Below are positions 918-17,250 of a DNA stretch of 18,720 nucleotides, one piece after another. Under the pieces are notes generated by a model. It had not been told where the DNA came from, searched no databases, and worked only from the letters and a program-made list of their open reading frames with translations. Source of the stretch: a virus (lineage: Duplodnaviria; Heunggongvirae; Uroviricota; Caudoviricetes); IMG/VR virus record IMGVR_UViG_2634166457_000003, positions 1-18,720 of that record; one strand, written 5' to 3'. Made by a program: the position numbers and the translations under genes. How positions within the stretch are numbered: the first letter of the stretch is position 1; the number at the start of each line of letters is the position of its first letter.

Positions 918-1516
918 TACGCAAACTCCAGCAGCTGCGCGGCCACATTTTCGACTTGTTCCGGAGAGGAAAATTTACGGAACAGAATCCAGTTCCACAG
1001 CACATTCAGAACAGATTTATAAACCTGCTGAAACTCGGTTTCGTCCATATTCGCAAAAGCGATGGATTTCGCCCGACGCCCATGGCTACCGTCCGGATAA
1101 AAATGTTCGGTGTAAAATCCAGCCTGAATGGTTACCCACTCGCGAAAAGCCTCAAACGACTTTAGCAATGCCGTATCCCGGGTTCTGCGTGTCGCAACTG
1201 TATTCAGATATTGCTCTGCGGCATCACTCAGGGCTGGCGTGTGTTCCCGACCAACTGATTCGCACAGGTAATCAACGAAACCAGACAGCAGTTCTCGTTC
1301 GCGAGGCGTGATCGCCCCACCGACCGGAGTCCAGTAATCGAATCCCAGTTGCAGGAGTTTGAAAAAACGCTTGTGGAATGCGTAGTTACGCACACGCTTA
1401 AAGTCTGCGTGTATCCACTCACCTATTTTGATTTGATGCAGAAAATCGCAACTCTCCGGCGTCGCCGGGAGAAGTAAACCAGAAGAAGTTTGTTTGACCA
1501 GTTGTATATGCGCCAT
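917..1516 (-). CDS. nin-region phage protein of unknown function (possibly DUF1367-like), 199 aa
   Basis: Long ORF with ATG start, coupled to the downstream YbcO-like gene; the family name is not verifiable from sequence alone. Confidence 0.5.
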   Translation of the reverse strand: MAHIQLVKQTSSGLLLPATPESCDFLHQIKIGEWIHADFKRVRNYAFHKRFFKLLQLGFDYWTPVGGAITPRERELLSGFVDYLCESVGREHTPALSDAAEQYLNTVATRRTRDTALLKSFEAFREWVTIQAGFYTEHFYPDGSHGRRAKSIAFANMDETEFQQVYKSVLNVLWNWILFRKFSSPEQVENVAAQLLEFA

Positions 1517-1979
1517 TTCTCAATCTCTCGATGGCGCAGTGCAGCAGATGCCAGTTGTTCAGGCTGACGTATAAAGTATAAATAAACTGGTTCCAGTGTA
1601 AAGCCCCCACCTTAATGGAATAAAAACCAAACAACAGATTGCTGGGATACAAACAACGCTTATTATTAAAAGCGGTTAAACAAATTAAATTTTAATGTTA
1701 TGCAAATTTGTCAGATCACCATAATATCTCATTTGAAAACCGCTGAAATAACAACCCTATCAGGGTTAATCATATTAAGGTGAGTAAATATGGAAAACAA
1801 CAAATCTGCACATTACGTTCCTTTTTTATCCGTAATACTTTTTGTTTTATGCTGTGCGTGGGCATTATTTTTATAAAAATATTTACAGATGAAGTAAACC
1901 CGCCAATCAGGTTAACTGTGGCTGCGTTGAGGATGCATAATACATCAGAGGTTGCGGGGATTTCTCCCCGCTGGTCCTC

Positions 1980-2135
1980 TTACTCCCCAAGTTCGTAAGC
2001 TGTGAAGACAGCGACCTCCGTCTGGCCGGTTCGGATTCGTACCTCGCAGAGGTCTTTCCTCGTTACCAGTGCCGTCACTATGACGGTTAAACAGATGACG
2101 ATAAGGGCGATTAACATCGCCTTTTGCTGCTTCAT
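1980..2135 (-). CDS. Hok/Gef-family type I toxin, 51 aa (HokD/RelF-like)
   Basis: MKQQKAMLIALIVICLTVIVTALVTRKDLCEVRIRTGQTEVAVFTAYELGE: single transmembrane helix plus the conserved C-terminal CE.R.R....EVA..YE motif of the Hok family. AAGGAG sits 9 nt upstream of the ATG. The track ORF 1980..2192 is an in-frame upstream extension of it. Confidence 0.75.
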   Translation of the reverse strand: MKQQKAMLIALIVICLTVIVTALVTRKDLCEVRIRTGQTEVAVFTAYELGE

Positions 2136-2393
2136 AGCCTGCTTCTCCTTGCCTTTCGGCACGTAAGAGGCTAACCTACATTTGCTAGACATAGATTGGG
2201 CCTCAGATTAATGTTAAGCGTCTTGCAGGACGCGTAATGTTAACTGGGGCTTTTCTCTATCTGCCGTTGGTGGCATGCCCGAGGCAGATAGCCTCAAGCA
2301 CCCGCTGCAATTCTACTTAACTCTTCTTTTCCCGCAAACCGTTTTTATCCAGCACAGCAAATAGCCGCATTAAGCCAATGTTGTTCATTGTGT

Positions 2394-2573
2394 TTACCGC
2401 CAGTATTCAATACAAATGACCGCCATGAATACCCCTACAAAAAGCGCACTTATATGTCCAAATATTAATGTCAAGACATCAACTTCCTCCATCTCCTCCG
2501 CTGTTGCGATGATAGGTATACATGATGCAAACAACCAGATTGCAACAAATAAAAACTGCAATGTCTTTTTCAT
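2394..2573 (-). CDS. Small two-helix membrane protein, 59 aa, hypothetical
   Basis: Start trimmed to ATG (MKKTLQFLFVAIWLF...) preceded by GGGGGA; two hydrophobic helices separated by an acidic loop (TAEEMEEVD). Confidence 0.4.
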   Translation of the reverse strand: MKKTLQFLFVAIWLFASCIPIIATAEEMEEVDVLTLIFGHISALFVGVFMAVICIEYWR

Positions 2574-2688
2574 TATTCCCCCGACAATCAATGAGTAATA
2601 ACATTTAAACATAGATTGACATAATCAGACATAAAAATATCTGGCTGCACATTTTGCTTACATCGTGTTATAGGGAAGATTAAAAAAT

Positions 2689-3252
2689 TCACCGCAAAAC
2701 ATCCGCCGCGCTTACCAGTCCATTTCGCTTCAGGTAGTCCATCGCTTTATCCGGTAATTTGCAGTCCGACTTCACTTTCTTCAACTGGCTGACCAATTGC
2801 TTAACCAGCATGGTTAATTCATTAATCTGTTTGCCTGGTACTGGTGGATTGTCGGTTGCACCATGACTGGCAGTACAGTTAGCACTCCCTCCCTTCTCCT
2901 CCTGCAGCGGTTCAGGTAACGCTTCCAGTGATGTTTTTACAAACCACGCTGCCTGAACTATAACGCCATGAATCCAGCGCAAATCAGCATCGCGATCTTT
3001 CTTTTTCATCTTCTCGCCACTTAAAGCCTGGCTTATGTGACTGCGTACCAGGTCTTCATGTAACTCCTTCGCATCCTCAATGGTGAAACCACCAGGTAAA
3101 CGCCCCAGAGTTACCGGAGAGTTGCCAGCCTTGCGCATGGCAATTTCCACGATTTCAACCATATCTTCTGGTGGAATTTTACAATGCTGGCCAATATGCC
3201 TCTGCTGTCTGGCATACTCGAGGATGTGCTCCAGCTTGGTTCGATTAATCAT
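2689..3252 (-). CDS. Hypothetical phage protein, 187 aa
   Basis: ORF with ATG start overlapping the upstream stop (ATGA), consistent with translational coupling; no motif recognised. Confidence 0.6.
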   Translation of the reverse strand: MINRTKLEHILEYARQQRHIGQHCKIPPEDMVEIVEIAMRKAGNSPVTLGRLPGGFTIEDAKELHEDLVRSHISQALSGEKMKKKDRDADLRWIHGVIVQAAWFVKTSLEALPEPLQEEKGGSANCTASHGATDNPPVPGKQINELTMLVKQLVSQLKKVKSDCKLPDKAMDYLKRNGLVSAADVLR

Positions 3253-3728
3253 GATTTATCTCCCTTAAGCATGGCGGCGCGGCAGGCGTTAAGCGCGTTT
3301 TGCACGCGTTTAGCGTTCTGTACTTCGTATTTAGGTGCGGCTGCCAATGCCCATAGCCAACCAATTTCATAGCTATCAGCTTTTGATAGAGCACATTCCA
3401 TTTCCAGTGTTATTTTCTTAGGTACGAGTTGCCAATCATCTGGCACTACTGGCGCTGGTGCCCCAGACAGCAAAGCATCAGCCATACACATAGCTTCCAG
3501 TCCCGTAGCCTCCGCGATACCGTCACGAATAAGCTCAAGCCCCTCTTTTGTTAATAGTTTCATTCCTTTATACATGACGGGCACTAGCGGTTCTGTTTCC
3601 AGCGATGCCAGTGCAATTTTGAATAACTCACCCTCTACTCGTGCCACGCCTGAATTGGGATGGCATTTCGCAATCGCTATTTTTAATTTAGCTTCTTCAA
3701 TTAATTGTTCTTTTGTTAATTCAGCCAT
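3249..3728 (-). CDS. Hypothetical phage protein, 159 aa
   Basis: ORF in the operon frame series; Shine-Dalgarno weak; no motif recognised. Confidence 0.55.
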   Translation of the reverse strand: MAELTKEQLIEEAKLKIAIAKCHPNSGVARVEGELFKIALASLETEPLVPVMYKGMKLLTKEGLELIRDGIAEATGLEAMCMADALLSGAPAPVVPDDWQLVPKKITLEMECALSKADSYEIGWLWALAAAPKYEVQNAKRVQNALNACRAAMLKGDKS

Positions 3729-3821
3729 TTTTCACTACCGCCCTTTCAGGCGCTCCTGATGTTCTGAGGGTGCAGAAATCCCTCCGGTTAAGGATTAAAT
3801 TTTTAACAGTGCTAAATTTAA

Positions 3822-4178
3822 TTATTCAGTTCTGGATTTTGTCGCTCTGCGTATCCCCGCTTTTGCGTTACGCTCAATCTGAATTAACTTTTCTATATTT
3901 TTCCGCCTTTCCTGTTCCTCCTGGCGCAATAGCCTTACATCCTCTGCCAGTCTGGTTTCTCTTTTCGCCACAGAGAGCATCCAGCCAAACGGCTCCACAA
4001 CTGCACTGCAGATTTTACAGCGGACCTGACGCTCTTTTTCATCAACCCGGACAGAAGCGTGATGGCAATATGGTCTTTCCGATGGCTCATAAAGAAAATT
4101 AACCTGATTACGTGGGTCATCTTCTTTTACCGGAAATAAAACAATATTACTTAACTCATCTTCTGGTTTTATTTCCAC
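3822..4178 (-). CDS. Hypothetical Cys/His-rich (zinc-ribbon-like) protein, about 118 aa
   Basis: GTG start at 4178 preceded by AAGGAG with 6-nt spacing; alternative ATG start at 4211 would overlap the upstream gene. Motif PYCHH...CKIC. Confidence 0.5.
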   Translation of the reverse strand: MEIKPEDELSNIVLFPVKEDDPRNQVNFLYEPSERPYCHHASVRVDEKERQVRCKICSAVVEPFGWMLSVAKRETRLAEDVRLLRQEEQERRKNIEKLIQIERNAKAGIRRATKSRTE

Positions 4179-4179
4179 G

Positions 4180-4491
4180 TCACTCTCCTTTGATGCGAAT
4201 GCCAGCAACACGTAGTGCGCGCTCTAAATCAGCCAGATAAATCCAGCTGCCATTTTCCTTAGGTATCATGACATGGCGCTCATCAGCATTTATCGGGTGT
4301 CCATATCGAAGTTCATAGCCAGCCGGTAGCTGGACTTCCCTTGCCTCCAGTTCTGCAATGCGCTTGTCTTTGGCTTCCAGTTCATCAAGAACCTTTTTTA
4401 TGGCTGGTGAATGTGTCGCATAACTCGCAGCCGGACCGGCAAGCATTATCCTGAGCTGCGTTTTCGCTTTTTCCGTGTTCATTTGGTTCAT
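4180..4491 (-). CDS. Hypothetical phage protein, 103 aa
   Basis: ATG-initiated ORF in the operon; coiled-coil-like middle region (ELEAKDKRIAELEARE). Confidence 0.55.
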   Translation of the reverse strand: MNQMNTEKAKTQLRIMLAGPAASYATHSPAIKKVLDELEAKDKRIAELEAREVQLPAGYELRYGHPINADERHVMIPKENGSWIYLADLERALRVAGIRIKGE

Positions 4492-4506
4492 TACCTTATT
4501 TAGTGG

Positions 4507-4914
4507 CTATATTCCCCAATAGAACGTTAGTATACGCTGCATAACTTCGCTTTCCCGGCACTCGCTACAGATTATGTTCTGACGCCTGTCATAACGACGT
4601 ATTTCTCCGTCTGGTAATGACCAGATAAGGTCCGGATCAACCACAGATGTTTTTTTCTTCAGCTTTGCCCTTGAGAGTTTTTTGCGGGCATTTTGCCAGT
4701 CCTTACGAGCCTGTTCTGACGGGAATAACCCGTAGCCAGAGCTGTATACATCACCACTGACAACCAGCTCTCTTGCAAGAACGCTCATCAGATATCTTGT
4801 CGCACCTGTTTTAGCTTCCAGTTGCCGTAACGTCTCACGACCGCTCTGGCGCACGAGTTCCACCACCTGCCTTTTAATTTTTTCCCGCTCTTCTTGTGTA
4901 AATACTTTTGCCAT
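4507..4914 (-). CDS. Hypothetical phage protein, 135 aa
   Basis: Start trimmed to ATG (MAKVFTQ...) 8 nt downstream of GGAGG; basic C-terminal segment. Confidence 0.55.
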   Translation of the reverse strand: MAKVFTQEEREKIKRQVVELVRQSGRETLRQLEAKTGATRYLMSVLARELVVSGDVYSSGYGLFPSEQARKDWQNARKKLSRAKLKKKTSVVDPDLIWSLPDGEIRRYDRRQNIICSECRESEVMQRILTFYWGI

Positions 4915-4929
4915 AAGCGCCTCCGGCAA

Positions 4930-5691
4930 TCACTTTTCCGACACAATACGACTGGAGGAATCGACAATCTGTCGAACAATATCCCGGTGCTTGTTCAGCT
5001 CCCGTAGCGCGGCGCAGACTCGCTCCCACTTCTGGACATGACTTTTCGCCCGGCGCAGTTCGCGGTTTGCCATATGCAGCGATGGTAAAATCAGGTCATT
5101 GGCTCGCGTTTCAGTGAACGATGGTAGTGACTGCACAATGTCCCCCATAGTATCTGTTTTAATTTCTTCCTGTGTTGCCGCTTCCTGTGCTGGTAACGCA
5201 ACACCGGCTGGCTGAGGAAAGGCTTTACCATCAGTTTCCGCTACCGATGCAGCTTTCGGCTCTGCTGGTAAATTATCGCCCGGCATGCAGTAACGAAATT
5301 TACCGTTCTGATTAACGCGAATCAGACGACCTTTACTGATTGCCATTGCCAGCGTTGAAGCCACTTTGCGTGATGTGATGCCGAAAAACGTAGCCAGTTC
5401 ATCCGCCGTTTGTGGGCCACGTTGTTCAATCGTCGCAGTTAAATCGCACTCCGAAATTTTTGCGACTGTTGCCGTGGTGGTTTCTTCCGGCAGTTCTGCC
5501 TGCTCTGGCTGTTCCTGCTGAACGTTGTTATCAGCCACACGCCAGGTGTATACGCTTTTATCAACGAAACCAGCCTTTTTCAGTTCCCACAGCTCGTTCA
5601 GTACCTCTTCACGACTGATATCAAGTCGCGCAGCCAGTTCTACCGACGTGGCTTTTCCCATTGCTTTCAGTGCGTCAAAAACAGTCTCCAT
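4930..5691 (-). CDS. YdaW-like putative DNA-binding protein, 253 aa
   Basis: Start trimmed to ATG (METVFDALK...) preceded by GGGAGG; two winged-helix-like segments. Lies immediately downstream of ydaV, where K-12 Rac carries the ydaW remnant. Confidence 0.55.
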
Positions 5692-5713
5692 TAAAATTTC
5701 CTCCCGGTAAAAA

Positions 5714-6460
5714 TCACTTCGCAATTCCTGGCTGGACGACATTCGGACGCCAGCTCTCCCAGTTAAAATTCACCCAGCGTCCGCCGTTCATGGTCATGCG
5801 ATCCATAATCCGCTCGCCGAGCAATGTTTTCATCGCCTCATAGTTCAGGTTTGTCAGCATCCCCACGCTGCGCATCGACGCTGTCCGGCGATCAACAATC
5901 TGGTGCAGCACCACCTGCTCGTTTTTTGTCTCGCGCTGAATGCCAATTTCATCAAGAACCAGCAGATCCACTTGGCACAGTTCCCGCAAAAATTTTTCGC
6001 CTGATTGCCCGTCGTCATAGCTGGCGTGTAGAGCACTCATGACATCAGCCACGGTAACCACAATCACTGTCTGGCCATCTTTCAGCAGGCGATTCCCGAT
6101 AGCCGCCGCCAGATGGTTTTTTCCGGTACCAGGTTTTCCGCTGAACGCAAAATTTGTACACCCGGTCATCAGTTCATCAGCGATAGATTTCGCCTGGTTC
6201 AACGCGTATCGCTGACCGTCGTTCTGCACCTGGTAATTCGCAAACGAGCATTTGCGGTGCAATGGCTGGATGCCAGAGCGATTCAGAATTTTTTCCACCC
6301 GCAACTGACGATTCTGACGGTTGATCTCCTCACAACGTTTCTGGCCTTCGGAAAGTTGCCACTCGCGCCACTCCGCTACCGTTTTGAATGGGGCGGTTAC
6401 ATGTGGCGGGGCCAGTCTGCGGATACGTTCAAGAATGCCGCCTGCCGCAATATTTTTCAT
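5714..6460 (-). CDS. ydaV: DnaC/IstB-like AAA+ replication helicase-loader (YdaV), 248 aa
   Basis: Walker A motif [16 protein letters not shown]; length and sequence match the recalled K-12 YdaV; follows the O-like gene. Confidence 0.85.
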
Positions 6461-6466
6461 GGTCAG

Positions 6467-7324
6467 TTACCCCCTGAAGCCTGGCGGGATCGCACTATCC
6501 GGTAACGAGACGGTGTTAACCTGTCGGAGTAACGTCTCAGGTCGAACACCTTTTGGCGCGAACAAGCCCTGGTATTCATTGGCGATGCTGTGTCGAATCA
6601 CCTGCTCAGGTGAAAAACCCTGCTGGCGGAATTTTTCCAGCTCCCGTATCGCCCCGTTAGCGCCCTGCTCCGTTCGAATCGGTTTACGCAATGCCTGGCG
6701 AAATTCAACCCACTCACGCCAAAGCGAGACAGAAATCCAGTTCGGCAAAGCAATATCCAGAGGGTCAAACTTTTTGACACCTCGATTACCCCGGGGGGGA
6801 TTTAGGGGGGGATCTGTTTTTAGATCTTTATCTGTATCTTTATTAGTTGCCTTTGTGTTGACATCATGTTCAAACACCACTTCAACATCTGTTTGAACAC
6901 CTGTTAAATTTCTCTCTTGTTTTGTTTGAACATCTGCTTCCTTTCTGCTTCTTCTGGCCTGAACCGATGCTTTTCCTGCGGCTGATTTTTTGGTTAATTT
7001 TTCCCTGACTGATGCCAGATCTTCCTCAATCCGAAGATGCACCCATTCCTCGCCGTTATCGCAAAAAAACTCCCGCAAGGATGGTTCAACATCAGCCCAT
7101 CGCTCGTTAGTCAGGCGGGCAATTTTTGCCAGCCTGTTTTTAGGTATTGGCTTTCCTGTTTGCCAGTAATTGAACATCAGCAACAAATACGCACCATGCT
7201 CCTCTGCTGACAAATGCATGGTGTCAGCCAGGTAATCAGCTATGTACAGTTGCATGTATGGTAATGCGGCCATAATTGCCCCGTATGATGCTGCCCGGTG
7301 GCTTAGAATAAGCACAAACAGCAT
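6467..7324 (-). CDS. ydaU: Phage replication initiation protein (YdaU, O-like), 285 aa
   Basis: 285 aa ORF with ATG start; position between the cII-like and DnaC-like genes; matches recalled K-12 YdaU length. Confidence 0.8.
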   Translation of the reverse strand: MLFVLILSHRAASYGAIMAALPYMQLYIADYLADTMHLSAEEHGAYLLLMFNYWQTGKPIPKNRLAKIARLTNERWADVEPSLREFFCDNGEEWVHLRIEEDLASVREKLTKKSAAGKASVQARRSRKEADVQTKQERNLTGVQTDVEVVFEHDVNTKATNKDTDKDLKTDPPLNPPRGNRGVKKFDPLDIALPNWISVSLWREWVEFRQALRKPIRTEQGANGAIRELEKFRQQGFSPEQVIRHSIANEYQGLFAPKGVRPETLLRQVNTVSLPDSAIPPGFRG

Positions 7325-7336
7325 GGAAACTTTTGC

Positions 7337-7759
7337 TTAATGAACAATGACAGAATCGTCGGAAGACCCGCCGCCGCTGAAATGCGCTTTCCGGTAAACG
7401 GCTTGGACTGCATCATCATGCGCATCAATTGCCGTACTTAACGCTTCCTGCGCCGCCAGTAATGCACGGCGTTCCAAGGTATCGAAGATGTAGAGTCGGT
7501 GACGCAGATCGCGCGGAAGGATTGCCAGAATTGCTGGGATCAGCTTCTGAATTTTTTCTCTTTGCGTTTTTGTTTCACCTTTCAACCAACGGTGATAGAT
7601 ATTCTGCTGATTGTTCCAGTCCTTGCCTGGAACCAGGGGCAATTCGCAGTCCCCCTGGCGCAGATATTCTTCAGTAATTGCATTGGCTACCCATGCCTGC
7701 CCTTTTTCGGCTGCCAGGGCAAACAACACTGATTCGATGTGCTCATGCTTGATTTTCAT
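7337..7759 (-). CDS. ydaT: YdaT (cII-like early regulator/toxin), 140 aa
   Basis: 140 aa, immediately downstream of the cro-like ydaS; matches recalled K-12 Rac YdaT. Confidence 0.8.
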   Translation of the reverse strand: MKIKHEHIESVLFALAAEKGQAWVANAITEEYLRQGDCELPLVPGKDWNNQQNIYHRWLKGETKTQREKIQKLIPAILAILPRDLRHRLYIFDTLERRALLAAQEALSTAIDAHDDAVQAVYRKAHFSGGGSSDDSVIVH

Positions 7760-7781
7760 GAATCATTTGCCTCTTGATGTT

Positions 7782-8078
7782 TCAGGTATGATCAAATGAG
7801 GATTTGTTACTGTCTTTTAGTTGCTTCACTGACATATTCTGCGAACAACATGCCGAACGTCGTAAATATGACCAGTCAATATCAGGACGAAGTTCTTCGC
7901 ACAGAACCTCACCTCTTGTTGCACGTTCAATTGCTGGACATCTCTCGGCAGGCAATTGACGTACCCCTTTGATCCATTGATTTACGCTTGGAGGTGATAC
8001 ACCTAAAAGCCTAGCCATTGCTGATTGCCCACCGACAACAGCACAAGCTTGCTTGAATGAATAGTTCTCTTTTTTCAT
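7782..8078 (-). CDS. ydaS: YdaS (Cro-like HTH regulator/toxin), 98 aa
   Basis: Helix-turn-helix segment (QACAVVGGQSAMARLLGVSPPSVNQWIKG); divergent from racR; GGAG 9 nt upstream of the ATG. Confidence 0.8.
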   Translation of the reverse strand: MKKENYSFKQACAVVGGQSAMARLLGVSPPSVNQWIKGVRQLPAERCPAIERATRGEVLCEELRPDIDWSYLRRSACCSQNMSVKQLKDSNKSSFDHT

Positions 8079-8104
8079 CGAATGAACTCCAAAAACACAC
8101 AGGA

Positions 8105-8134
8105 ATATTAGGCGACGCCTAACGCAAATGTCAA
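8105..8134 (-). promoter_or_regulatory. pR-like sigma70 promoter for ydaS (TTGACA-18-TAATAT on minus strand)
   Basis: On the minus strand, -35 TTGACA (8129-8134) and -10 TAATAT (8105-8110), about 25 nt upstream of the ydaS start; overlapped by TTAGGC-type operator half-sites. Confidence 0.55.
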
Positions 8135-8190
8135 TAGGCTATGCCTAATGCGATAAAGGTAGGGATTGCCTAATGTAATGCGCATAGGAG
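8107..8190. promoter_or_regulatory. Operator cluster (OR-like) between ydaS and racR
   Basis: Repeated dyads built from TTAGGC / GCCTAA half-sites: TTAGGCGACGCCTAA (8108-8122), ATAGGCTATGCCTAAT (8134-8149), and a weaker GCCTAAT-containing site near 8166-8186. Confidence 0.6.
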
Positions 8191-8201
8191 AATATTAAGC
8201 A

Positions 8202-8678
8202 ATGCTTAGTGGTAAAGACTTAGGCCGAGCGATAGAGCAGGCCATTAACAAAAAAATCGCATCGGGATCCGTCAAATCAAAGGCGGAGGTCGCACGCCAC
8301 TTCAAAGTCCAACCACCATCAATTTATGACTGGATTAAGAAAGGCTCTATAAGTAAAGATAAACTTCCAGAATTATGGCGTTTCTTTTCTGATGTTGTTG
8401 GTCCAGAGCATTGGGGGCTTAACGAATACCCCATACCAACCCCCACCAATTCAGATACAAAAAGTGAACTTTTAGATATAAACAACCTTTATCAAGCAGC
8501 CTCTGATGAAATAAGAGCGATTGTAGCTTTCCTGTTATCTGGAAATGCTACAGAACCAGATTGGGTTGACCACGATGTTCGCGCCTACATAGCAGCGATG
8601 GAAATGAAAGTGGGTAAGTATCTGAAAGCTCTAGAATCTGAACGGAAAAGCCAGAACATCACAAAAACTGGAACTTAA
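8202..8678 (+). CDS. racR: Prophage repressor RacR (CI-like), 158 aa
   Basis: 158 aa; divergent from the cro-like ydaS; flanked on both sides by operator dyads; AGGAG upstream of the ATG; matches recalled K-12 RacR. Confidence 0.85.
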   Translation: MLSGKDLGRAIEQAINKKIASGSVKSKAEVARHFKVQPPSIYDWIKKGSISKDKLPELWRFFSDVVGPEHWGLNEYPIPTPTNSDTKSELLDINNLYQAASDEIRAIVAFLLSGNATEPDWVDHDVRAYIAAMEMKVGKYLKALESERKSQNITKTGT

Positions 8679-8749
8679 ACTTATATGGTCTGACGGAAAA
8701 CTCCTGGATTCCGTTATTTAACCCCCCCATCACTTTCTGCTGTCGCCAT

Positions 8750-8817
8750 CACCTATTAGGTTACGCTCAAAACATTAGGCATAGCCTATTGACAATCAAT
8801 TAGGCATTACCTATAGT
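8750..8817. promoter_or_regulatory. Operator cluster (OL-like) downstream of racR
   Basis: ATTAGGCATAGCCTAT (8774-8789) is the exact reverse complement of the OR-side site at 8134-8149; additional TTAGGCATTACCTAT (8799-8813) and CCTATTAGG (8752-8760). Confidence 0.6.
8789..8817 (+). promoter_or_regulatory. pL-like sigma70 promoter for the ydaG-to-intR operon (TTGACA-17-TATAGT)
   Basis: Consensus -35 TTGACA (8789-8794), 17-nt spacer, -10 TATAGT (8812-8817); operator half-sites overlap the -35 and the spacer. Confidence 0.6.
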
Positions 8818-8986
8818 TCCAGCATACCACCCACCCCGCCCCACAGAACGCCGGGCAATACTTCGAGTTACCAGGCAGTGGTAAGGGGTTAAGTAGCCAG
8901 CCCGAGGCGTATGAACATGACGGCGGGATTCAAATTTTGCAGTGCAGCAGTTAGTTCCGCCACCCGGCGTTAAGGGGAGAGATAAG

Positions 8987-9121
8987 ATGGTGCATTACGA
9001 AGTAGTTCAGTATTTGATGGATTGTTGCGATATCACTTACAGCCAGGCTGTACAGGCTCTACGCAGCAACGACTGGGACCTCTGGCAGGCAGAAGCCTCT
9101 ATCCGCAACAACAAAATGTGA
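8987..9121 (+). CDS. ydaG: YdaG, 44 aa small protein
   Basis: Not in the six-frame track (under 60 aa). ATG at 8987 follows AAGGGGAGAG; translation MVHYEVVQYLMDCCDITYSQAVQALRSNDWDLWQAEASIRNNKM; matches recalled K-12 YdaG length. Confidence 0.7.
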   Translation: MVHYEVVQYLMDCCDITYSQAVQALRSNDWDLWQAEASIRNNKM

Positions 9122-9131
9122 GGTGCGAAAA

Positions 9132-9287
9132 ATGCAAAAAATCGACCTCGGCAATAACGAATCCCTGGTGTGCGGCGTATTCCCCAACCAGGACGGTACG
9201 TTCACCGCGATGACGTATACCAAAAGCAAAACATTTAAAACCGAAACTGGTGCGCGCCGATGGTTGGAGAAGCACACAGTAAGCTAA
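9132..9287 (+). CDS. ydaF: YdaF, 51 aa small protein
   Basis: Not in the track. ATG at 9132 follows AGGTG; translation MQKIDLGNNESLVCGVFPNQDGTFTAMTYTKSKTFKTETGARRWLEKHTVS; matches recalled K-12 YdaF length. Confidence 0.7.
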   Translation: MQKIDLGNNESLVCGVFPNQDGTFTAMTYTKSKTFKTETGARRWLEKHTVS

Positions 9288-9772
9288 CGATTAAAACGCC
9301 TACTCCTGCTGTTCCAGAATAACTTCATAAAGTGGGAGTATTTTTCGGTGACTAGATAATAAGAACAGTTTGCGCTATCACTCTGATGTTGAATGATGCC
9401 CTTCCGTTCTAATTTTTTCATAACCGGGTTACGGCAAGGAGAAGTGATAATAAGATTTCCTGTTTTAAGGAAATCTTTAAATACAGCGATTTCTTTCTCA
9501 GATAAACGAAGCAATACTCGTTGCTCTGGCAGCAATGAATAATGCTTTTGAATATGTGCTCGCAATCTTGAGAAGGAAATGGCGACCACGAAAGAAAAGG
9601 CAAAAACGATAATCTGAAATAGCCAGGATATTTCAGTATAAGAATTGAATGCGACAGCGAACTCTTTCGGTATCAACCAGAGAGTGAGACCAAAAATGAT
9701 AATCGTGTACATAAGTCTTTCGAGTGGCTCGTTAGCAAAAAGTTTCAACAATGGAGTAAATACATCCAACAT
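9284..9772 (-). CDS. sieB: Superinfection exclusion protein SieB, 162 aa
   Basis: Start trimmed to the internal ATG (MLDVFTPLLKLF...) to give the 162-aa length recalled for K-12 SieB; hydrophobic N-terminal helices. Coordinates follow the track frame. Confidence 0.75.
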   Translation of the reverse strand: MLDVFTPLLKLFANEPLERLMYTIIIFGLTLWLIPKEFAVAFNSYTEISWLFQIIVFAFSFVVAISFSRLRAHIQKHYSLLPEQRVLLRLSEKEIAVFKDFLKTGNLIITSPCRNPVMKKLERKGIIQHQSDSANCSYYLVTEKYSHFMKLFWNSRSRRFNR

Positions 9773-9990
9773 ATCAATAACTCTCGACTGTAAGGGTATT
9801 GAAATGTTAACACAAGCTCTCGCTGTAGGGGTATAGCAGAGACCACCGAAGCCCGGAGGTGGTGAAATAAAACCGGGCACAACACGAAGGCGCATTTCCG
9901 ATATCCATAAAGAGTCGGTCTTGTCTGTTAAATTTAAATGGTGGGAGTGCGCCTCCGGTTGTGGATAACAACACTGCTGTGTGTAGTCTT

Positions 9991-10037
9991 GGCGGCATCA
10001 GTTTTTTCTTGAAGTTCGACTGATGTCCGCCCTTTTT
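9991..10037 (+). terminator. Candidate intrinsic terminator upstream of kilR
   Basis: Imperfect inverted repeat GGCGGCATCAGT ... ACTGATGTCCGCC followed by CTTTTT. Confidence 0.35.
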
Positions 10038-10212
10038 AAAGTGAATTTTGTGATGCGGTGAATGCGGCTAAGCGCACGCGGCACAGTTAAAAGTCATGTT
10101 AGTCCTTATTGGTTTGGGTGGGAAAGCCGACTGTAATTGTTAACTGGTTGCAGTCACCTGGAGGCACCAGGCACCGCATCAACAAAGTTCATTTGTAAAA
10201 ATGGAGATAATT

Positions 10213-10434
10213 ATGATTGCACATCACTTCGGAACTGATGAAATACCACGTCAGTGTGTGACTCCTGGTGACTATGTTCTTCATGAAGGCCGGACATATA
10301 TTGCATCGGCAAACAATATTAAAAAGCGAAAACTTTATATTCGTAACCTGACCACAAAAACATGCATTACTGACTGCATGATTAAAGTCTTCCTCGGTCG
10401 TGATGGTTTACCTGTAAAGGCGGAGTCATGGTGA
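10213..10434 (+). CDS. kilR: Cell-division inhibitor KilR, 73 aa
   Basis: Start trimmed to the second ATG ([14 protein letters not shown]...); matches the recalled K-12 KilR sequence and length. Confidence 0.85.
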
Positions 10435-10604
10435 TGACTAAGAAAATAAAATGTGCTTATCACCTTTGCAATAAAGGAATTGAAGAAAGCAAAAGCATTA
10501 AAAGACCACTTCATTTCATGCGTGGAGTTATCCCAACGACGGAAATGAAAAAATATTGTAGTGAAATTTGTGCCGAAAAAGACCAGATGGCACACGAACT
10601 TTAA
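10434..10604 (+). CDS. ydaE: YdaE, 56 aa Cys-rich small protein
   Basis: Not in the track. [15 protein letters not shown]...CSEICAEKDQMAHEL; start overlaps the kilR stop; alternative start at 10428. Confidence 0.7.
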   Translation: MTKKIKCAYHLCNKGIEESKSIKRPLHFMRGVIPTTEMKKYCSEICAEKDQMAHEL

Positions 10605-10677
10605 TTAACTAACTATGCGAAACTGAATTTATGCCAGCAATGGCAGGGATTCGCTCAACCTTAATTAAGGAGAAAAA

Positions 10678-10953
10678 ATGATTACCAATTATGAAGTCAC
10701 TGTTGTAACTACCGATGACATTGTTCACGAGATTAATCTGGAAGGAAAGCGTATTGGCTACGTGATTAAAACAGAAAATAAAGAAACCCCATTCACTGTG
10801 GTTGATATTGACGGCCCATCAGGCAACGTAAAAACACTTGATGAAGGTGTCACAAAAATGAGTCTGGTTCACATCGGAAAGAATCTGCCCGCAGAAAAAA
10901 AAGCCGGATTTCTGGCAACTCTGATTGCAATGAAATTAAAAGGTGAAATCTGA
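10678..10953 (+). CDS. racC: RacC, 91 aa
   Basis: 91 aa; GGAG upstream of the ATG; matches recalled K-12 RacC; immediately upstream of recE. Confidence 0.8.
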   Translation: MITNYEVTVVTTDDIVHEINLEGKRIGYVIKTENKETPFTVVDIDGPSGNVKTLDEGVTKMSLVHIGKNLPAEKKAGFLATLIAMKLKGEI

Positions 10954-11051
10954 AAAAAGAAAGCCTGCACAACGTGCAGGCCTGAGTGAAGAACCTGGGA
11001 CATTTATTCATCACTCGCAGTAATTTTAATCTGAGTTGAGGTTAAAAAACA

Positions 11052-14000
11052 ATGAGCACAAAACCACTCTTCCTTTTACGGAAAGCGAAAAAATCATCCG
11101 GTGAGCCTGACGTCGTCCTGTGGGCAAGCGACGATTTTGAATCAACCTGTGCCACTCTGGACTACCTGATCGTTAAGTCAGGTAAAAAACTGAGCAACTA
11201 TTTTAAAGCTGTTGCCACGAGTTTTCCTGTCGTTAATGACCTGCCCCCTGAAGGTGAGATCGATTTTACCTGGAGTGAACGCTATCAACTCAGCAAAGAC
11301 TCCATGACCTGGGAACTAAAACCGGGAGCAGCGCCAGACGACGTTCACCACCAGGATAATGCTCAGGAAACCAAAGAACTGGCGGGAGGCCAGGAAGAAA
11401 ACGCGCAGGCAGACGCCCACGGGGATTGCCAGGATTGCGAAGTCTCTGTAGCCACTTTGCGGTTCACACAGCGTCTTCTTCACATTTTTACGTATGCGGC
11501 CGGGGATCGGAAATACCTGCATCATGCTACCCGTGAACAACGCGAACACATTACTGCTCTTGAGATGGACCAGGAAAACAGCTATGTCCAGAATCTGCTG
11601 TTGGCCATACGCGGCATGGCAGAACCGACAACTCTGGATAATGCCGCCCTGCTCCGCCTGACTGATGCAATTAAGGCAGTTTTCTCTATCACGAAAAAAC
11701 ATCAGCCCTATGAATTTAAGAATTTCATTTCAGCCTGGCTGGATACCGAACACATTGATCGTGGTCTTCTGACAAAAGAATGGAGGAAAGGGAATCGTGT
11801 TTCACGCATCACTCGCACGGCTTCCGGTGCTAATGCTGGCGGCGGGAACCTCACCGATCGCGGCGAAGATTTCGTCCACGATCTGACGTCACTGGCACGC
11901 GATGTAGCCACTGGCGTACTGGCCCGTTCAATGGACGTGGACATCTATAACCTTCATCCGGCACACGCTAAACGCATTGAGGAAATTATCGCTGAAAATA
12001 AACCGCCCTTTTCTGTTTTCCGCGACAAATTCATCACCATGCCTGGCGGGCTGGATTATTCCCGCGCCATCGTGGTTGCGTCCGTAAAAGAAGCACCAAT
12101 TGGGATCGAGGTCATCCCCGCGCACGTCACTGAATATCTGAACAAAGTACTGACTGAAACCGATCATGCAAACCCTGATCCGGAAATCGTGGATATTGCC
12201 TGCGGTCGCTCCTCTGCCCCGATGCCGCAGCGAGTAACAGAAGAAGGAAAACAGGATGATGAAGAAAAACCGCAACCATCTTGCGCAATGGCAAATGAAC
12301 AGGCAACGGCTGAAACAATGGAACCGGACGCAACTGAACATCATCAGGACACGCAGCCGCTGGATGCTCAGTCACAGGTAAATTCTGCTGATGCGAAATA
12401 TCAGGAACTGCGGGCAGAACTCCATGAAGCCCGGAAAAACATTCCATCAAAAAATCCTGTCGATGCCGACAAATTGCTGGCTGCCTCGCGTGGTGAGTTC
12501 GTTGAAGGGATTAGCGACCCGAACGATCCGAAATGGGTAAAGGGGATCCAGACTCGCGACTCTGTGTACCAGAACCAGCCAGAAACGAAACAAAACACGC
12601 CAGAAACTGTAAAAACCAGCCCGGATGTGAAACAACCTGAGCCAGTAGTGCAACAGAAACCGGAAATAGTCTGCAATGCCTGCGGTCAGACTGGCGGGGA
12701 TAACTGCCCTGACTGTGGTGCGGTGATGGGCGACGCAACATACCAGGAAACATTCGATGAAGAGAATCAGGTTGAAGCTAAGGAAAATGATCCGGAGGAA
12801 ATGGAAGGCGCTGAACATCCGCACAAGGAGAACGCTGGCAACCATCCGCATCACGATTGCAGTGATGAAACTGGTGAAGCGTCAGCTCATGTAGCAACTG
12901 AAATCATGTGGCCGTCATATTTCGAGCCTGGCCGCTATGAAAACCTCCCGAACGAGGTTTATCACTCCGCCAACGGAATAAGCAGCACAATGCTGAAGGA
13001 TGCCCGCATCAGTCTGATGTATTACCACGGGCGGCACATTGCCGGAACTATTCCGAACGAGGAAAGTGATGCATTGCTGCGTGGGCGGATCATTCACAGC
13101 TATGTTCTGGAAACGGATAAATTCGCTGATGAATATGCCATTCCGGTACCGGTTCCTGAATATGTGGTTACTACTTCTAACGAGCTGATCACCATCATTA
13201 AAAAACACAATGCCAGTCTGCCATCACTGATGACACCAGAGCAGATGAAAGAGTGGATCGAAAGCTACAACAGCACTCTTATACAGCCACTGTCGGTAAG
13301 CGCTGGGGCCGAAGAAACAGGCATCCTTTACGGTTCGCTTCCGGAGGAATTTCGGCGTATTCCTGAGGGGGAAAAACACACAGCATCAGCAATGAAAGCC
13401 TGTATTAAAGAATACAACGCAAGCCTCCCTCCTCTGCTGAAAACCAGTGGAACACGGGAGCAGCTTCTGGAGCAAATTGAAACTGTAGATCCAGAACTGG
13501 CAAAAAAAGAACGTGCTAAATCGTTGCCTTACAACATCAGTGGCACAAAAGAGCAATTAACCGAAATCGCCCGGAAAATTCGCCCGGAACTGGTAACACT
13601 GGAGGACTGGCAAAAACGCCAGCAAGAAGAAAATGCAGGAAAAACGTTTATCAGTCCAGATATGTATGAACAGGCAAAAAATATTCACGTGGCACTGCAA
13701 AACAATACTGACGCGGCAAGACTACTCAACCACCCGGATCGCAAATCTGAAATCAGCTATTTCGGGTTTGATGAAGAAACCGGGCTGGAAATCAGGGTCC
13801 GCCCTGATATCGAAATCCGACTGCCATACGAAAGCATCTGCGCCGACGTGAAATCAGTAAGCCTCGGTTATGTGCGGCAAGAACGACTAAAAGATCGCTT
13901 ACACCGTGAAATTATTGAACGTGATTATCACCTGAGCGCCGCAATGTACTGCGATGTGGCAAACTTGGACAAATTTTTCTGGATCTTCGTCAACAAAGAT

Positions 14001-14063
14001 GCTGGCTATCACTGGGTGGCTGTCGTGGAAGCCTCGCAGGAACTCCTGGAACTTGGTCGATAG
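11052..14063 (+). CDS. recE: RecE-like exodeoxyribonuclease VIII, 1003 aa as read; ends at an in-frame amber codon with the frame open to 14195
   Basis: N-terminal roughly 600 aa match the recalled K-12 RecE ([26 protein letters not shown]...); the C-terminal domain carries PD-(D/E)xK-like motifs ([13 protein letters not shown]). TAG at 14061-14063 is followed by 43 sense codons in the same frame up to TGA 14193-14195. Confidence 0.8.
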
Positions 14064-14206
14064 GAATATCGCCGGACGCTACGACAGATAAACGAAGCGC
14101 TGGAGACAAACAACTGGCCAGCACCGATTACCGAAAGTTATACCGACGAATTAAACGACTTTGATCTTCGTCGTCTTGAAGCACTGAGCATCTGAGGAAG
14201 GACACA

Positions 14207-15259
14207 ATGAACGAATTAACTCAACAAGAAAATATTAACTCTAATGTTGCAGTTTTCAGCCCTCAGTCTCTGGCTGCAATTCAGACGTTTTCTCAGGTAA
14301 TGGCTTCCGGCATGGCTACTGTACCGGAACACCTCCGAGGAAATCCATCAGACTGCATGGCCATCACCATGCAGGCGATGCAGTGGCAAATGAACCCTTA
14401 CGCAGTAGCTCAGAAAACTTTCGTTGTGAATGGTGTGCTCGGATATGAAGCGCAACTGGTTAATGCCGTAATCAGTACTCGTGGGCCGCTAACCGGGCGT
14501 ATTGAATATGACTGGTTCGGGCCGTGGGAAAAAATTATCGGGAAATTTGAAATCAGGAAGAACGACAAAGGGAAAGAATATCGTGTACCTGGCTGGAAGC
14601 TGGCCGATGAAAACGGGATCGGAGTTCGCGTCCAGGCAACACTACGCGGAGAGAGCAAACCACGCGTACTGGAGTTACTTCTGGCGCAGGCCAGAACACG
14701 TAACTCAACGTTATGGGCCGATGATCCTCGTCAGCAGCTTGCCTATCTGGCACTGAAACGCTGGGCGCGCCTTTATTGCCCTGAAGTGATTCTTGGAGTG
14801 TACACCCGGGACGAACTGGACGAACCACAGGAAAAAATCATTAATCCGGTTCAGGAACATAAAAACACATCCGCCTGCCGTGCGGAACGTGAAACAACAA
14901 TTATTGAGCAGGATGCAGGGGAAAACTGGATCAGTGCTTTCCGTGAACGTATTGAGCAGGCACAAAGCACCGGAGAAACAACAGCACTTCGGCAGGAAGT
15001 GGAAGAGCATAAAAATACACTTGGCGCTCTCTATACGGAACTTAAAGGAAAAGTGGTTCAGCGTCATCACCGTCTCAATGCTATTGCCCGTATTGAGAAG
15101 ATGATAAATGACCTGCCTTCATCAGGTGATCCGGAAGCAGAACAAAAATTTACTGCTCTGGAAAATGCGTTGAATGCTGCACGACCACATCTGGGAGAAT
15201 TATATGAGGCGTATAAAACGACACTGACAGATATGAAACCAGAATATATCGGCTCCTGA
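14207..15259 (+). CDS. Single-strand annealing protein of the Red-beta/RecT superfamily, 350 aa (not K-12 RecT)
   Basis: Sits in the recT position after recE; GAGGAAGG upstream of the ATG. Segments MNPYAVAQKTFVVNGVLGYEAQLVNAVI and WADDPRQQLAYLALKRWARLY resemble the Red-beta core, while the overall sequence differs from the recalled K-12 RecT. Confidence 0.7.
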   Translation: MNELTQQENINSNVAVFSPQSLAAIQTFSQVMASGMATVPEHLRGNPSDCMAITMQAMQWQMNPYAVAQKTFVVNGVLGYEAQLVNAVISTRGPLTGRIEYDWFGPWEKIIGKFEIRKNDKGKEYRVPGWKLADENGIGVRVQATLRGESKPRVLELLLAQARTRNSTLWADDPRQQLAYLALKRWARLYCPEVILGVYTRDELDEPQEKIINPVQEHKNTSACRAERETTIIEQDAGENWISAFRERIEQAQSTGETTALRQEVEEHKNTLGALYTELKGKVVQRHHRLNAIARIEKMINDLPSSGDPEAEQKFTALENALNAARPHLGELYEAYKTTLTDMKPEYIGS

Positions 15260-15322
15260 TATTTACTATGGCGGCGTAGCCTCACCGCCATAACAAAACT
15301 TTATTTTATGAGAGAAAATACA

Positions 15323-15517
15323 ATGCGGTATGAAAAAGTCAAACCATGTCCATTTTGTGGTTGTTCATCAGTAACGGTGAAAGCCATTTCAGGATATTAC
15401 CGAGCGAAGTGTAACGGATGCGAATCCCGAACCGGCTATGGTGGAAGTGAAAAAGAAGCACTCGAACGATGGAATAAACGAACCTCTGGAAATAATAATG
15501 GAGGTGTTCATATATAA
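15323..15517 (+). CDS. ralR: RalR (Lar), 64 aa; type I toxin with DNase activity and restriction-alleviation role
   Basis: Start trimmed to MRYEKVKPCPFCG...; Cys-rich motif CPFCGC...CNGC; matches the recalled K-12 RalR sequence and length. Confidence 0.85.
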   Translation: MRYEKVKPCPFCGCSSVTVKAISGYYRAKCNGCESRTGYGGSEKEALERWNKRTSGNNNGGVHI

Positions 15518-15698
15518 AATTACCGCCACTATTGAAAAGGAAGGAGGCACTCCTACTAACTGGACAAGATATTCAAAATCTAAACTAACGAAATCAGAAT
15601 GCGAAAAAATGCTCTCAGGTAAAAAAGAAGCAGGCGTTTCCAGAGAGCAGAAAGTAAAACTGATAAATTTTAATTGCGAGAAACTTCAGTCCTCATGA
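15498..15698 (+). CDS. ydaC: YdaC-like small protein, about 66 aa
   Basis: ORF overlapping the ralR 3' end in another frame; start uncertain (ATG at 15498 or 15438, neither with a clear Shine-Dalgarno); position matches ydaC of K-12 Rac. Confidence 0.5.
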   Translation: MEVFIYKITATIEKEGGTPTNWTRYSKSKLTKSECEKMLSGKKEAGVSREQKVKLINFNCEKLQSS

Positions 15699-15797
15699 AT
15701 TGCATTGTATTCAAATTAAAACTTCATAGCTGATTATTAATAATCAACATCGGGCGTCAATTTCAGTCTAACATTGGCGCCTGCCAGAGGTGATGCG

Positions 15798-16013
15798 ATG
15801 GCACAAGTAATCTTTAATGAAGAGTGGATGGTTGAATACGGCCTGATGCTTCGCACTGGTCTGGGTGCCAGACAAATTGAAGCATACCGCCAGAACTGTT
15901 GGGTGGAAGGCTTCCACTTCAAACGAGTATCTCCTTTAGGGAAGCCAGACAGTAAGCGAGGGATTATCTGGTACAACTATCCGAAGATAAATCAGTTTAT
16001 CAAAGACTCATGA
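15798..16013 (+). CDS. xisR: Excisionase XisR (YdaQ), 71 aa
   Basis: Start trimmed to ATG at 15798 ([12 protein letters not shown]...), since the track ORF begins on TTG; ends 1 nt before the integrase start; matches recalled K-12 YdaQ. Confidence 0.85.
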
Positions 16014-16014
16014 T

Positions 16015-17250
16015 ATGTCTAAATTACCAACAGGTGTCGAGATTCGAGGTAAATACATTCGCATCTGGTTCATGTTTCGAGGAAAACGATGTCGGGAAAC
16101 ATTGAAAGGCTGGGAGATTACTAACAGTAACATTAAAAAGGCCGGGAATTTAAGAGCGTTGATAGTTCATGAAATCAGTTCCGGTGAATTTGAGTATTTA
16201 AGACGTTTTCCCCAGTCCAGCACTGGGGCAAAAATGGTGACAACGAGGGTCATAAAAACATTCGGGGAGCTTTGTGATATCTGGACAAAAATTAAAGAGA
16301 CAGAGTTAACAACAAACACAATGAAGAAAACGAAATCACAATTAAAAACACTCAGGATAATAATTTGTGAGAGTACCCCGATATCGCATATTCGTTATAG
16401 CGATATCTTAAACTACCGGAATGAACTGCTGCATGGAGAAACGCTTTACCTGGATAATCCAAGATCCAACAAAAAAGGAAGAACCGTGCGCACAGTTGAT
16501 AACTATATCGCCCTGCTCTGTTCGCTGTTACGTTTTGCGTATCAGTCGGGATTTATATCAACCAAACCATTTGAAGGAGTAAAAAAATTACAGCGAAACA
16601 GAATAAAGCCTGATCCGTTATCTAAAACAGAATTCAATGCATTAATGGAAAGTGAAAAAGGACAGAGCCAGAACTTGTGGAAATTTGCCGTTTACTCAGG
16701 ACTTCGTCACGGGGAACTGGCAGCTCTGGCGTGGGAGGATGTGGATCTCGAAAAGGGAATAGTGAATGTCAGAAGGAACCTGACGATACTTGATATGTTC
16801 GGTCCCCCAAAAACAAATGCCGGGATCCGGACAGTAACACTACTGCAGCCTGCTCTTGAAGCACTGAAGGAGCAATACAAACTGACCGGACATCATCGCA
16901 AAAGCGAAATCACCTTTTATCATCGGGAGTACGGCAGAACCGAAAAGCAAAAACTGCATTTTGTTTTCATGCCCAGGGTGTGTAACGGAAAACAAAAACC
17001 TTATTACTCGGTAAGCAGTTTGGGGGCAAGGTGGAATGCAGCAGTAAAACGTGCTGGTATTCGCCGCCGTAATCCGTACCATACGCGGCATACTTTTGCC
17101 TGCTGGCTGTTGACGGCAGGAGCGAACCCGGCATTTATAGCCAGCCAAATGGGGCATGAAACTGCGCAGATGGTGTATGAAATTTACGGTATGTGGATTG
17201 ATGACATGAACGACGAACAGATAGCCATGTTGAATGCGCGGTTATCGTAG
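16015..17250 (+). CDS. intR: Tyrosine-recombinase integrase IntR, 411 aa
   Basis: 411 aa; C-terminal catalytic region with an HTRHTFA motif (HxxR); adjacent to xis and to the host ttcA. Confidence 0.9.
   Translation: MSKLPTGVEIRGKYIRIWFMFRGKRCRETLKGWEITNSNIKKAGNLRALIVHEISSGEFEYLRRFPQSSTGAKMVTTRVIKTFGELCDIWTKIKETELTTNTMKKTKSQLKTLRIIICESTPISHIRYSDILNYRNELLHGETLYLDNPRSNKKGRTVRTVDNYIALLCSLLRFAYQSGFISTKPFEGVKKLQRNRIKPDPLSKTEFNALMESEKGQSQNLWKFAVYSGLRHGELAALAWEDVDLEKGIVNVRRNLTILDMFGPPKTNAGIRTVTLLQPALEALKEQYKLTGHHRKSEITFYHREYGRTEKQKLHFVFMPRVCNGKQKPYYSVSSLGARWNAAVKRAGIRRRNPYHTRHTFACWLLTAGANPAFIASQMGHETAQMVYEIYGMWIDDMNDEQIAMLNARLS

Follow-up and report, generated by a model that had tools for sequence, protein, structure and literature searches.

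A predicted RacR-repressed early-left promoter mirrors the ydaST promoter across the racR gene of a Rac-type prophage

Rac is the best-studied cryptic prophage of Escherichia coli K-12, and racR is among the few essential transcription factor genes there. We here analyze the immunity region around racR in an 18,720-nucleotide stretch of DNA (hereafter the window; positions 1 to 18,720 of virus record IMGVR_UViG_2634166457_000003), which represents a Rac-type prophage, with particular attention to the side of racR that faces ydaG. On the other side of the gene, electrophoretic mobility shift assay and chromatin immunoprecipitation showed binding of RacR, both in vitro and in the cell, to the 123 bp between racR and ydaS, and RacR was found to repress ydaS (PMC5700373). 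DNase I footprinting placed its operators at inverted repeats of the form T/ATAGGC-n3-GCCTAT/A, with one operator coinciding with the ydaST promoter and one overlapping the racR ATG; the same study mapped the racR promoters and the single PydaST promoter in K-12, and reported that YdaS does not repress racR (PMC9638921). PydaST, mapped and mutated in K-12 (PMC9638921, PMC11879457), consists of a −35 box TTGACA, an 18-bp spacer and a −10 box TAATAT, in a region described with four operators (PMC11879457). The likeness of this arrangement to the lambda cI-cro switch has been stated repeatedly (PMC5700373, PMC9638921, PMC11014345, PMC5917428). RacR itself was observed as an octamer in size-exclusion chromatography (151 kDa peak), and its authors seat this octamer on the four intergenic dyads (PMC11014345).

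A second operator block, beyond the repressor, has been described in prophage CP-933P of E. coli O157:H7, where a promoter named PL933P, carrying operators OL1-3, lies downstream of the repressor operon and is repressed by PaaR2 and YdaS (PMC8630535). The published operator papers on K-12, in contrast, concern the racR-ydaS intergenic region alone, and the block on the ydaG side is what the current analysis adds. The published O1-O3 (later four operators) and PydaST are identical to the left, ydaS-side block of the window; this half is therefore not new, and its dyads are the published RacR operator consensus (PMC9638921). We found no description of a promoter or operators between racR and ydaG in the Rac literature, with Conter 1996 and Cardinale 2008 outside our coverage. 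The term 'ydaG' is absent from PMC9638921 and PMC11879457, the word 'loop' is absent from PMC11014345, and Barshishat 2018 does not mention racR.

Comparison of the two sides of racR revealed an inverted repeat with arms at 8129-8150 and 8773-8794, which are 22 nt long, 100% complementary and 622 nt apart; the chance expectation for such a pair in 18.7 kb is about 1e-5. An initial annotation of this DNA had pointed to an exact mirror repeat of 21 nt flanking racR, which is borne out with one base to spare. Scanning the whole window for the dyad TTAGGC-N3-GCCTAA, as that annotation had proposed, retrieved five sites with up to two mismatches (starting at 8108, 8134, 8159, 8775 and 8800), all confined to the two blocks flanking racR, as compared to a mean of 0.56 in 200 shuffled sequences, none of which reached five. 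When three mismatches were allowed the total rose to 10 against a shuffle mean of 6.65, which is not significant, with three of the five extra sites falling in or beside the blocks, at 8195 (over the racR ATG), 8220 (inside racR) and 8756. A sigma-70 consensus scan of positions 7700-9300, scored over 12 positions, returned only two promoter matches, both facing outward from racR, and these are exactly the two promoters that the initial annotation had named. In both repeat arms an operator dyad is fused to the TTGACA of the −35 box, again as had been noticed, and the dyads hold the same positions relative to the −35 and −10 boxes on both sides of racR (Table 1).

We consider it highly likely that in the Rac immunity region RacR acts on two mirror-image modules, with the right-hand, ydaG-side block being the equivalent of lambda PL/OL. 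The count of "at least three" sites originally given for the ydaS side stands, with four sites found there, while the two to three of the other side resolve into two strong sites and a weak one. The resemblance to OR1-3 and OL1-3 holds in that there are two flanking operator sets, but the conserved layout is one of four and two sites rather than three and three. The weak site at 8756-8770 is not conserved as a whole, with an E. coli O157:H7 Rac variant keeping only its left half TTAGGT and with no such site at that position in other genera.

Table 1. Positions of the operators, promoters and genes of the immunity region in the window
Feature	Position	Strand	Remarks
ydaT	7337-7759	-	Pfam YdaT_toxin
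ydaS, Cro-like, first gene of PR-like operon	7782-8078	-	ORF (open reading frame); Pfam YdaS_toxin 2.6e-31, P22_Cro 3.3e-9; K-12 annotation
PydaST (PR-like) promoter	8105-8134	-	−35 TTGACA 8134-8129, 18-nt spacer, −10 TAATAT 8110-8105; 10/12
Operator dyad TTAGGCGACGCCTAA	8108-8122		Perfect match; overlaps PydaST −10 and spacer; published footprinted operator (PMC9638921)
Operator dyad ATAGGCTATGCCTAA	8134-8148		Fused to PydaST −35; core of left repeat arm; published operator region (PMC9638921)
Operator dyad GTAGGGATTGCCTAA	8159-8173		Over racR promoters; ~−42 from ATG in all relatives
Operator dyad TTAAGCAATGCTTAG	8195-8209		3 mismatches; spacer is racR ATG; −7 in every relative; published (PMC9638921)
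racR, prophage repressor	8202-8678	+	158 aa; N-terminal helix-turn-helix, unrelated C-terminal oligomerisation domain
Weak third right-hand site TTAGGTTACGCTCAA	8756-8770		3 mismatches; doubtful
Right-hand dyad 1 TTAGGCATAGCCTAT	8775-8789		Fused to −35; core of right repeat arm; conserved in 8 loci
PL-like predicted promoter toward ydaG	8789-8817	+	TTGACA, 17-nt spacer, TATAGT; 11/12
Right-hand dyad 2 TTAGGCATTACCTAT	8800-8814		Covers spacer and −10 of PL-like promoter; 25 bp from dyad 1
Conserved, probably structured 5' leader of PL-like transcript	8824-8986	+	~160 nt, +1 to ydaG; alignment A3
ydaG, first gene of PL-like operon	8987-9121	+	44 aa; weak UBA-like match
ydaF	9123-9287	+	DUF1391
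sieB	9284-9895	-	

The right-hand module is conserved well beyond E. coli. We collected RacR homologues from one genome per species, and a phage search added Klebsiella phage KpF5. Identity to RacR is 62% in Mixta, 57% in Morganella, 62% in Klebsiella and 60% in Proteus, and about 75% in Achromobacter and Pigmentiphaga, where it concerns the N-terminal 77 residues only. Eight loci possess a right-hand module: the K-12-like and O157-type Rac prophages, Mixta, Morganella, Proteus, KpF5, Achromobacter and Pigmentiphaga. In all eight its elements are in register, with dyad 1 (ending in GCCTAT) followed by TGAC(A/T), ten bases, dyad 2, and TAT or AGT; this yields a TTGACA or TTGACT −35 box fused to dyad 1 and, 17 bases on, a −10 box (TAATAT, TATAGT or TACTAT) overlapping dyad 2. 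The module reads away from the repressor gene in all eight loci, and the ydaS-side promoter is, in all loci, the same module inverted. The downstream dyads are exactly 25 bp apart in all homologue loci except the Klebsiella sp. R390 chromosome, and three dyads precede the repressor gene in every diverged homologue locus, at about −67, −42 and −7 from the ATG.

The sequence flanking the right-hand module, in contrast to the module itself, is unrelated and cannot be aligned between genera, and the distance from the repressor stop codon to the module ranges from 64 bp to 1.4 kb (about 1.4 kb in KpF5). It is apparently longer still in Achromobacter and Pigmentiphaga, where the repressor end was not mapped. 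The O157:H7 Rac variant is 87% identical to the window over the aligned part (about 13% different). Its two strong right-hand dyads show three differences, two of them in the N3 spacer and one at the base beside it, where the right-hand dyad does not match the consensus in any case. Divergence is heavy in the 30-40 bp that separate the racR hairpin from the right operators. Across the loci, identity in the DNA-binding N-terminal domain of RacR amounts to 71-96%, with residues 39-59 nearly invariant, and this conservation fits the unchanged operator half-site. Within E. coli, at least 593 of 5426 complete genomes carry the right-hand block, without annotation.

Some features of these loci are variable. 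In KpF5 (L137, 3043-4439) the genes carried between the RacR-like gene and the module include one for a DUF450 protein, and cargo genes also lie between repressor and module in the two betaproteobacterial loci (L012, L013); this slot corresponds to the position of rexAB in lambda and of paaA2-parE2 in CP-933P. Upstream of racR, E. coli Rac has four dyads (−94, −68, −43 and −7) as compared to three in its relatives (L008, L009, L011, L012, L013 and L137, at about 2430-2510). PydaST of Rac is located one 26-bp operator unit farther from racR, and the −43 dyad of Rac has lost the TTGAC next to it. The pattern looks like a duplication of one unit. One further match, a 5.2-kb contig binned as 'Candidatus Nanosynbacter' (L006, JARKOR010000130.1), encodes a RacR 100% identical to that of the window and is almost certainly E. 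coli contamination of a metagenome bin.

Published expression data point to a promoter at the same place. Silencing of racR by the C protein of a restriction-modification system leaves racR as the sole Rac gene that goes down, with ydaF, ydaG, ydaE and racC rising about 40-fold and ydaC, kilR and ralA more than 70-fold (PMC6765115). At low RacR, xisR and intR were reported to rise about 100-fold (PMC11014345). CRISPR interference (CRISPRi) against racR lowers its mRNA 11- to 20-fold and induces ydaG, kilR, ydaE, racC, recE, recT, ralR, xisR and intR (bioRxiv 10.64898/2026.09.06.749655), and the classical zygotic induction of rac recombination genes points the same way, as cited in PMC5917428. 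Since ydaG is the next gene after racR in the direction of transcription and goes up while racR falls, a separate RacR-repressed promoter between the two genes is required, and the conserved right-hand module sits exactly in the interval where it is needed. The PL-like promoter is also the only + strand match of at least 9/12 between 8817 and 15716, and our terminator scan of the window predicted no + strand intrinsic terminator before 17652, beyond intR; one long early-left operon is thus plausible. Expression of the kil, recET, xis and int genes very probably starts from the ydaG-side promoter.

These expression data also bear on another reading of the right-hand dyads, by which they are auxiliary RacR sites for looping or roadblock, the −35 and −10 boxes are incidental, and the left-arm genes are reached by read-through from racR whenever Rho-dependent termination fails. 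Indeed, a Rho- and NusG-dependent terminator (trac) has been described in racR, and silencing of kil was ascribed to it (PMC4150792, and the abstract of PMC5793797). Transcripts from the racR promoters, however, cannot yield a roughly 40-fold increase in ydaG and ydaF while racR mRNA falls (PMC6765115), and the ydaG-side genes rise under racR CRISPRi as well, with racR mRNA 11- to 20-fold down. The retention of TTGACA and a TA...T −10 box at 17-nt spacing in eight of eight diverged loci would also be unexpected of incidental sequences, making this explanation quite improbable. We regard as more improbable still that the palindromes act in RNA, as hairpins or terminators for racR on the + strand or for transcripts in the sieB direction on the − strand. 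A terminator-like match does exist on the − strand at 8788-8776 (five pairs, a 3-nt loop and the tail ATGTTTTGAG), but its stem is just 5 bp, a single match of this kind is at the level of shuffled sequences (mean 1.6), and the + strand has no U-tract. The ydaS-side copies of the same dyads are, moreover, footprinted RacR sites (PMC9638921), and across loci the half-site bases are conserved while the spacer bases, which would form the loop, vary freely; a role as terminators would also leave the paired promoter elements unexplained. We accordingly rejected the terminator reading, which has in its favor one weak − strand match and nothing beyond what shuffles give.

The 22-nt repeat could also be a by-product of recent recombination or gene conversion, or mark the ends of a mobile immunity cassette, and have no regulatory role on the right-hand side. 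The identity of the arms is exact in the window's strain, including at spacer bases that are free to vary, and it is likewise exact in E. ruysiae. It drops, however, to 21/22 in K-12-like and 20/22 in O157-type prophages with the functional positions fixed; the two arms resemble each other because their function constrains them, not because gene conversion is still going on. In other genera, what the two sides have in common is limited to the operator and promoter positions, and the repeat is accompanied by no transposase or recombinase. We thus see scarcely any chance that recombination accounts for the pattern.

Several points weigh against equating the right-hand block with PL/OL. The Klebsiella sp. 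R390 homologue (L010) lacks the right-hand pair within 2.5 kb; its left −35 box is also degenerate, which suggests a decayed prophage. The Rac literature covered here yielded no direct binding, footprint, reporter or start-site data for the right-hand block, and the block may have been described earlier in the papers outside that coverage (Conter et al. 1996, Cardinale et al. 2008). Expression of kil has been ascribed to read-through from the racR promoter past the Rho-dependent terminator in racR (PMC4150792), and part of the ydaG-side induction could be indirect, given such read-through. Induction of the early-left genes after loss of RacR could in principle also be secondary to YdaS or YdaT. 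With regard to looping, the distances between the two modules (641, 614, 591, 629, 1211 and 2155 bp across loci) show no conserved helical phase. We regard the ydaG-side half as a well-supported prediction of the Rac PL/OL equivalent; binding and repression by RacR at this block are inferred from conservation and published RNA-seq.

Two smaller observations concern the transcripts of racR. Shashni 2014 (PMC4150792; supplementary figures S3 and S9), the study that defined trac, speaks of an untranslated region of 210 nt ahead of racR, a length at odds with a racR-ydaS intergenic region of 123 bp. Right after the racR stop codon, positions 8691-8716 (+) can form a hairpin (ACGGAA...TTCCGT, then TATTTAA; fold −11 kcal/mol, z = −1.4), the pairing of which is kept in the O157 variant by changes on both arms (ACGGGAA/TTCCCGT). 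It fell below the threshold of our terminator scan, and may be a weak terminator for racR or an mRNA-stabilising hairpin.

The region between the PL-like promoter and ydaG forms a conserved leader. It matches more than 3,700 of the 5,426 complete E. coli genomes, often at several places in one genome and mostly without annotation, and a 20-mer from it has matches in at least 119 viral contigs. In prophages and viral contigs, this leader sits downstream of at least 10 unrelated operator/promoter types, the Rac, CP-933P and HK022-like types among them (loci L018-L136), and in most types it is preceded by a TTGAC-type −35 box with a copy of the type's own repeat on either side. Conservation across immunity types begins, within a few bases, at the predicted +1. 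Being common to unrelated promoter types, the leader is a portable module that heads early-left operons, and its position is that of HK022 putL or lambda nutL.

The leader RNA is probably structured. RNAalifold predicted two domains with 37 pairs, including a hairpin that closes the loop CAAUACUUCGAGUUA. Changes on both sides were seen in seven pairs, where column shuffles gave 1.5 and slid controls 1-3; this covariation comes mostly from a single divergent member, plus one AU/GC switch in 12 sequences, so that the support for the modelled structure is suggestive, not strong. Of the first 30 nt, 17 are C and 4 are G, a C-rich start that, on composition, looks like a Rho-loading site. At gathering thresholds, an Rfam search of the whole window retrieved only RalA and sok, both outside the leader, and a permissive Rfam search of 8680-9000 gave one meaningless microRNA match (E = 3.3). 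A profile search of the window recovered the leader once only, without a further copy that would correspond to putR. A small ORF within the leader (8917-8973) was judged non-coding because a 1-nt indel shifts the frame of its end and its variable stretch is the predicted hairpin tip; three leader variants stay in frame in mid-ORF.

The gene content of the window allows a broader comparison with known immunity systems. Over positions 7780-9130 the window shares 98.5% identity with E. coli K-12 MG1655 and 99.1% with strain SCU-104. In RefSeq the matching region is annotated as ydaS, racR and a small phage protein (ydaG), and ORFs, K-12 annotation and Pfam agree in showing that these three gene names were correctly assigned at the outset. 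The K-12 annotation lists ydaU, ydaT and ydaS on the first strand, then racR, ydaG and ydaF, with sieB on the opposite strand, followed by kilR, ydaE, racC, recE, recT, ralR, rcbA, xisR, intR and ttcA; for the ydaG-side genes annotated there, including kilR, recE/recT, xisR and intR, the same ORFs were found in the window. Pfam places a Cro-like (YdaS) and then a CII-like (YdaT) regulator at the head of the PR-side operon, and the functional analogy of YdaS and YdaT to Cro and CII has been published (PMC8630535, PMC11879457, PMC5917428). Farther from racR, the window contains two Rfam matches at gathering threshold. One is a sok antitoxin RNA at 2130-2303 (−) (117.6 bits), which implies that the late region holds a module of the hok/sok type; the other is the RalA antitoxin small RNA beside ralR at 15516-15694 (−) (219.4 bits). 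The recE frame (11052-14063, +) is open for 1003 codons from its first possible start, as compared to 866 aa annotated in K-12.

As in lambda, the repressor gene of Rac stands between two outward early promoters, each overlapped by copies of one operator. A Cro-like and then a CII-like gene come first in one arm, and the kil, xis and int genes, along with those for recombination, lie in the opposite arm. Adjacent Rac dyads are 25-26 bp apart from centre to centre, and adjacent lambda operators 23-24 bp. There are also clear differences. Rac has four PR-side and two conserved PL-side sites as compared to three and three in lambda, its modules are about 0.65 kb apart rather than 2.3 kb, and no N gene or recognisable nut site follows its PL-like promoter: the first genes are ydaG and ydaF, and inspection by eye showed neither an arginine-rich stretch in ydaG nor a boxA-like sequence in the leader. 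A further difference is that YdaS reportedly leaves racR unrepressed (PMC9638921). RacR shares with CI the five-helix fold of its N-terminal domain and the formation of octamers, while its C-terminal domain was reported to have an entirely different fold (PMC11014345). Our Pfam search of RacR gave a weak HTH_17 match alone and did not find Peptidase_S24. The description of this region as lambda-like immunity therefore holds for its architecture, but RacR is like CI in the N-terminal domain only; its C-terminal domain is unrelated to that of CI and lacks S24, and without this self-cleavage domain, induction of the RecA type is not expected.

CP-933P (paaR2-paaA2-parE2/ydaS-ydaT) resembles Rac in gene order, in the YdaS and YdaT families and in having an octameric repressor (PMC8630535), and the conserved leader also follows PL in Evi, a phage of the CP-933P type. 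It differs from Rac by a repressor of another family, operators made of GTTTAGT-type repeats, and a toxin-antitoxin pair between repressor and PL, where Rac has about 100 bp from the racR stop codon to the right operators. In HK022, as in Rac, no N protein is encoded after PL, and some prophages with HK022-like PL operators (AAAGTAC repeats) carry the Rac-type leader directly after them, in the putL slot. By eye, comparison of the leader with the HK022 PL leader and putL showed a short chance-level resemblance only; the Rac-type leader is about 160 nt long as compared to about 70 nt for putL, and occurs as a single copy in the window, with no putR-like counterpart.

Taken with the published work, these observations suggest the following model. 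RacR would bind as dimers to 15-bp dyads of the consensus TTAGGC-N3-GCCTAA. In each module one dyad would abut the TTGACA −35 box and a second, 25-26 bp away, would cover the spacer and the −10 box, so that RacR bound there blocks RNA polymerase. The left module, PydaST, for which binding and repression by RacR were shown experimentally in K-12 (PMC5700373, PMC9638921), is the equivalent of lambda PR and drives ydaS, ydaT and the replication genes, with the two further left-hand dyads, over the racR promoters and start codon, serving in autoregulation. The right module (8775-8817) would be a strong RacR-repressed promoter with its start near 8824; counted from this start, dyad 2 occupies roughly −24 to −10 and dyad 1 roughly −49 to −35. 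By symmetry with the footprinted left module, two RacR dimers on the right module would cover the spacer and −10 box and abut the −35 box. Its transcript would carry ydaG, ydaF, kilR, ydaE, racC, recE, recT, ralR, xisR and intR as one early-left operon, and loss of RacR would turn on both arms at once.

The octameric state of RacR in solution and the presence of a second two-site module 641-692 bp away lead to a further, purely conjectural step: a RacR tetramer on one module may meet the tetramer on the other, mirrored one, so that the intervening 640-690 bp or so, with racR, form a loop like the one that CI makes between OL and OR of lambda. A still broader proposal combines three elements, namely that the right-hand block is a true OL/PL; that the octamer bridges the two modules, rather than occupying four intergenic sites, and loops about 0.65 kb by means of an unrelated oligomerisation domain; and that the leader, about 160 nt long, acts in cis as a portable RNA, either a put-like antiterminator or a Rho-loading switch, which controls early-left elongation in lambdoid prophages without N. 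As a combination we hold this to be rather unlikely.

In general, the mirror-image arrangement first noticed around racR is confirmed, and its interpretation as a lambda-like immunity architecture is supported. The gain is incremental, since the architecture is textbook lambda and was already shown in CP-933P. Current models of racR essentiality, Rac excision and KilR induction rest on the racR-ydaS intergenic region and Rho-dependent termination alone. If our reading is true, the RacR octamer would have to be reinterpreted and an OL-OR loop would be predicted, and a RacR-repressed PL-like promoter about 100 bp past racR would provide a direct route to the expression of kilR, recET, xisR and intR.

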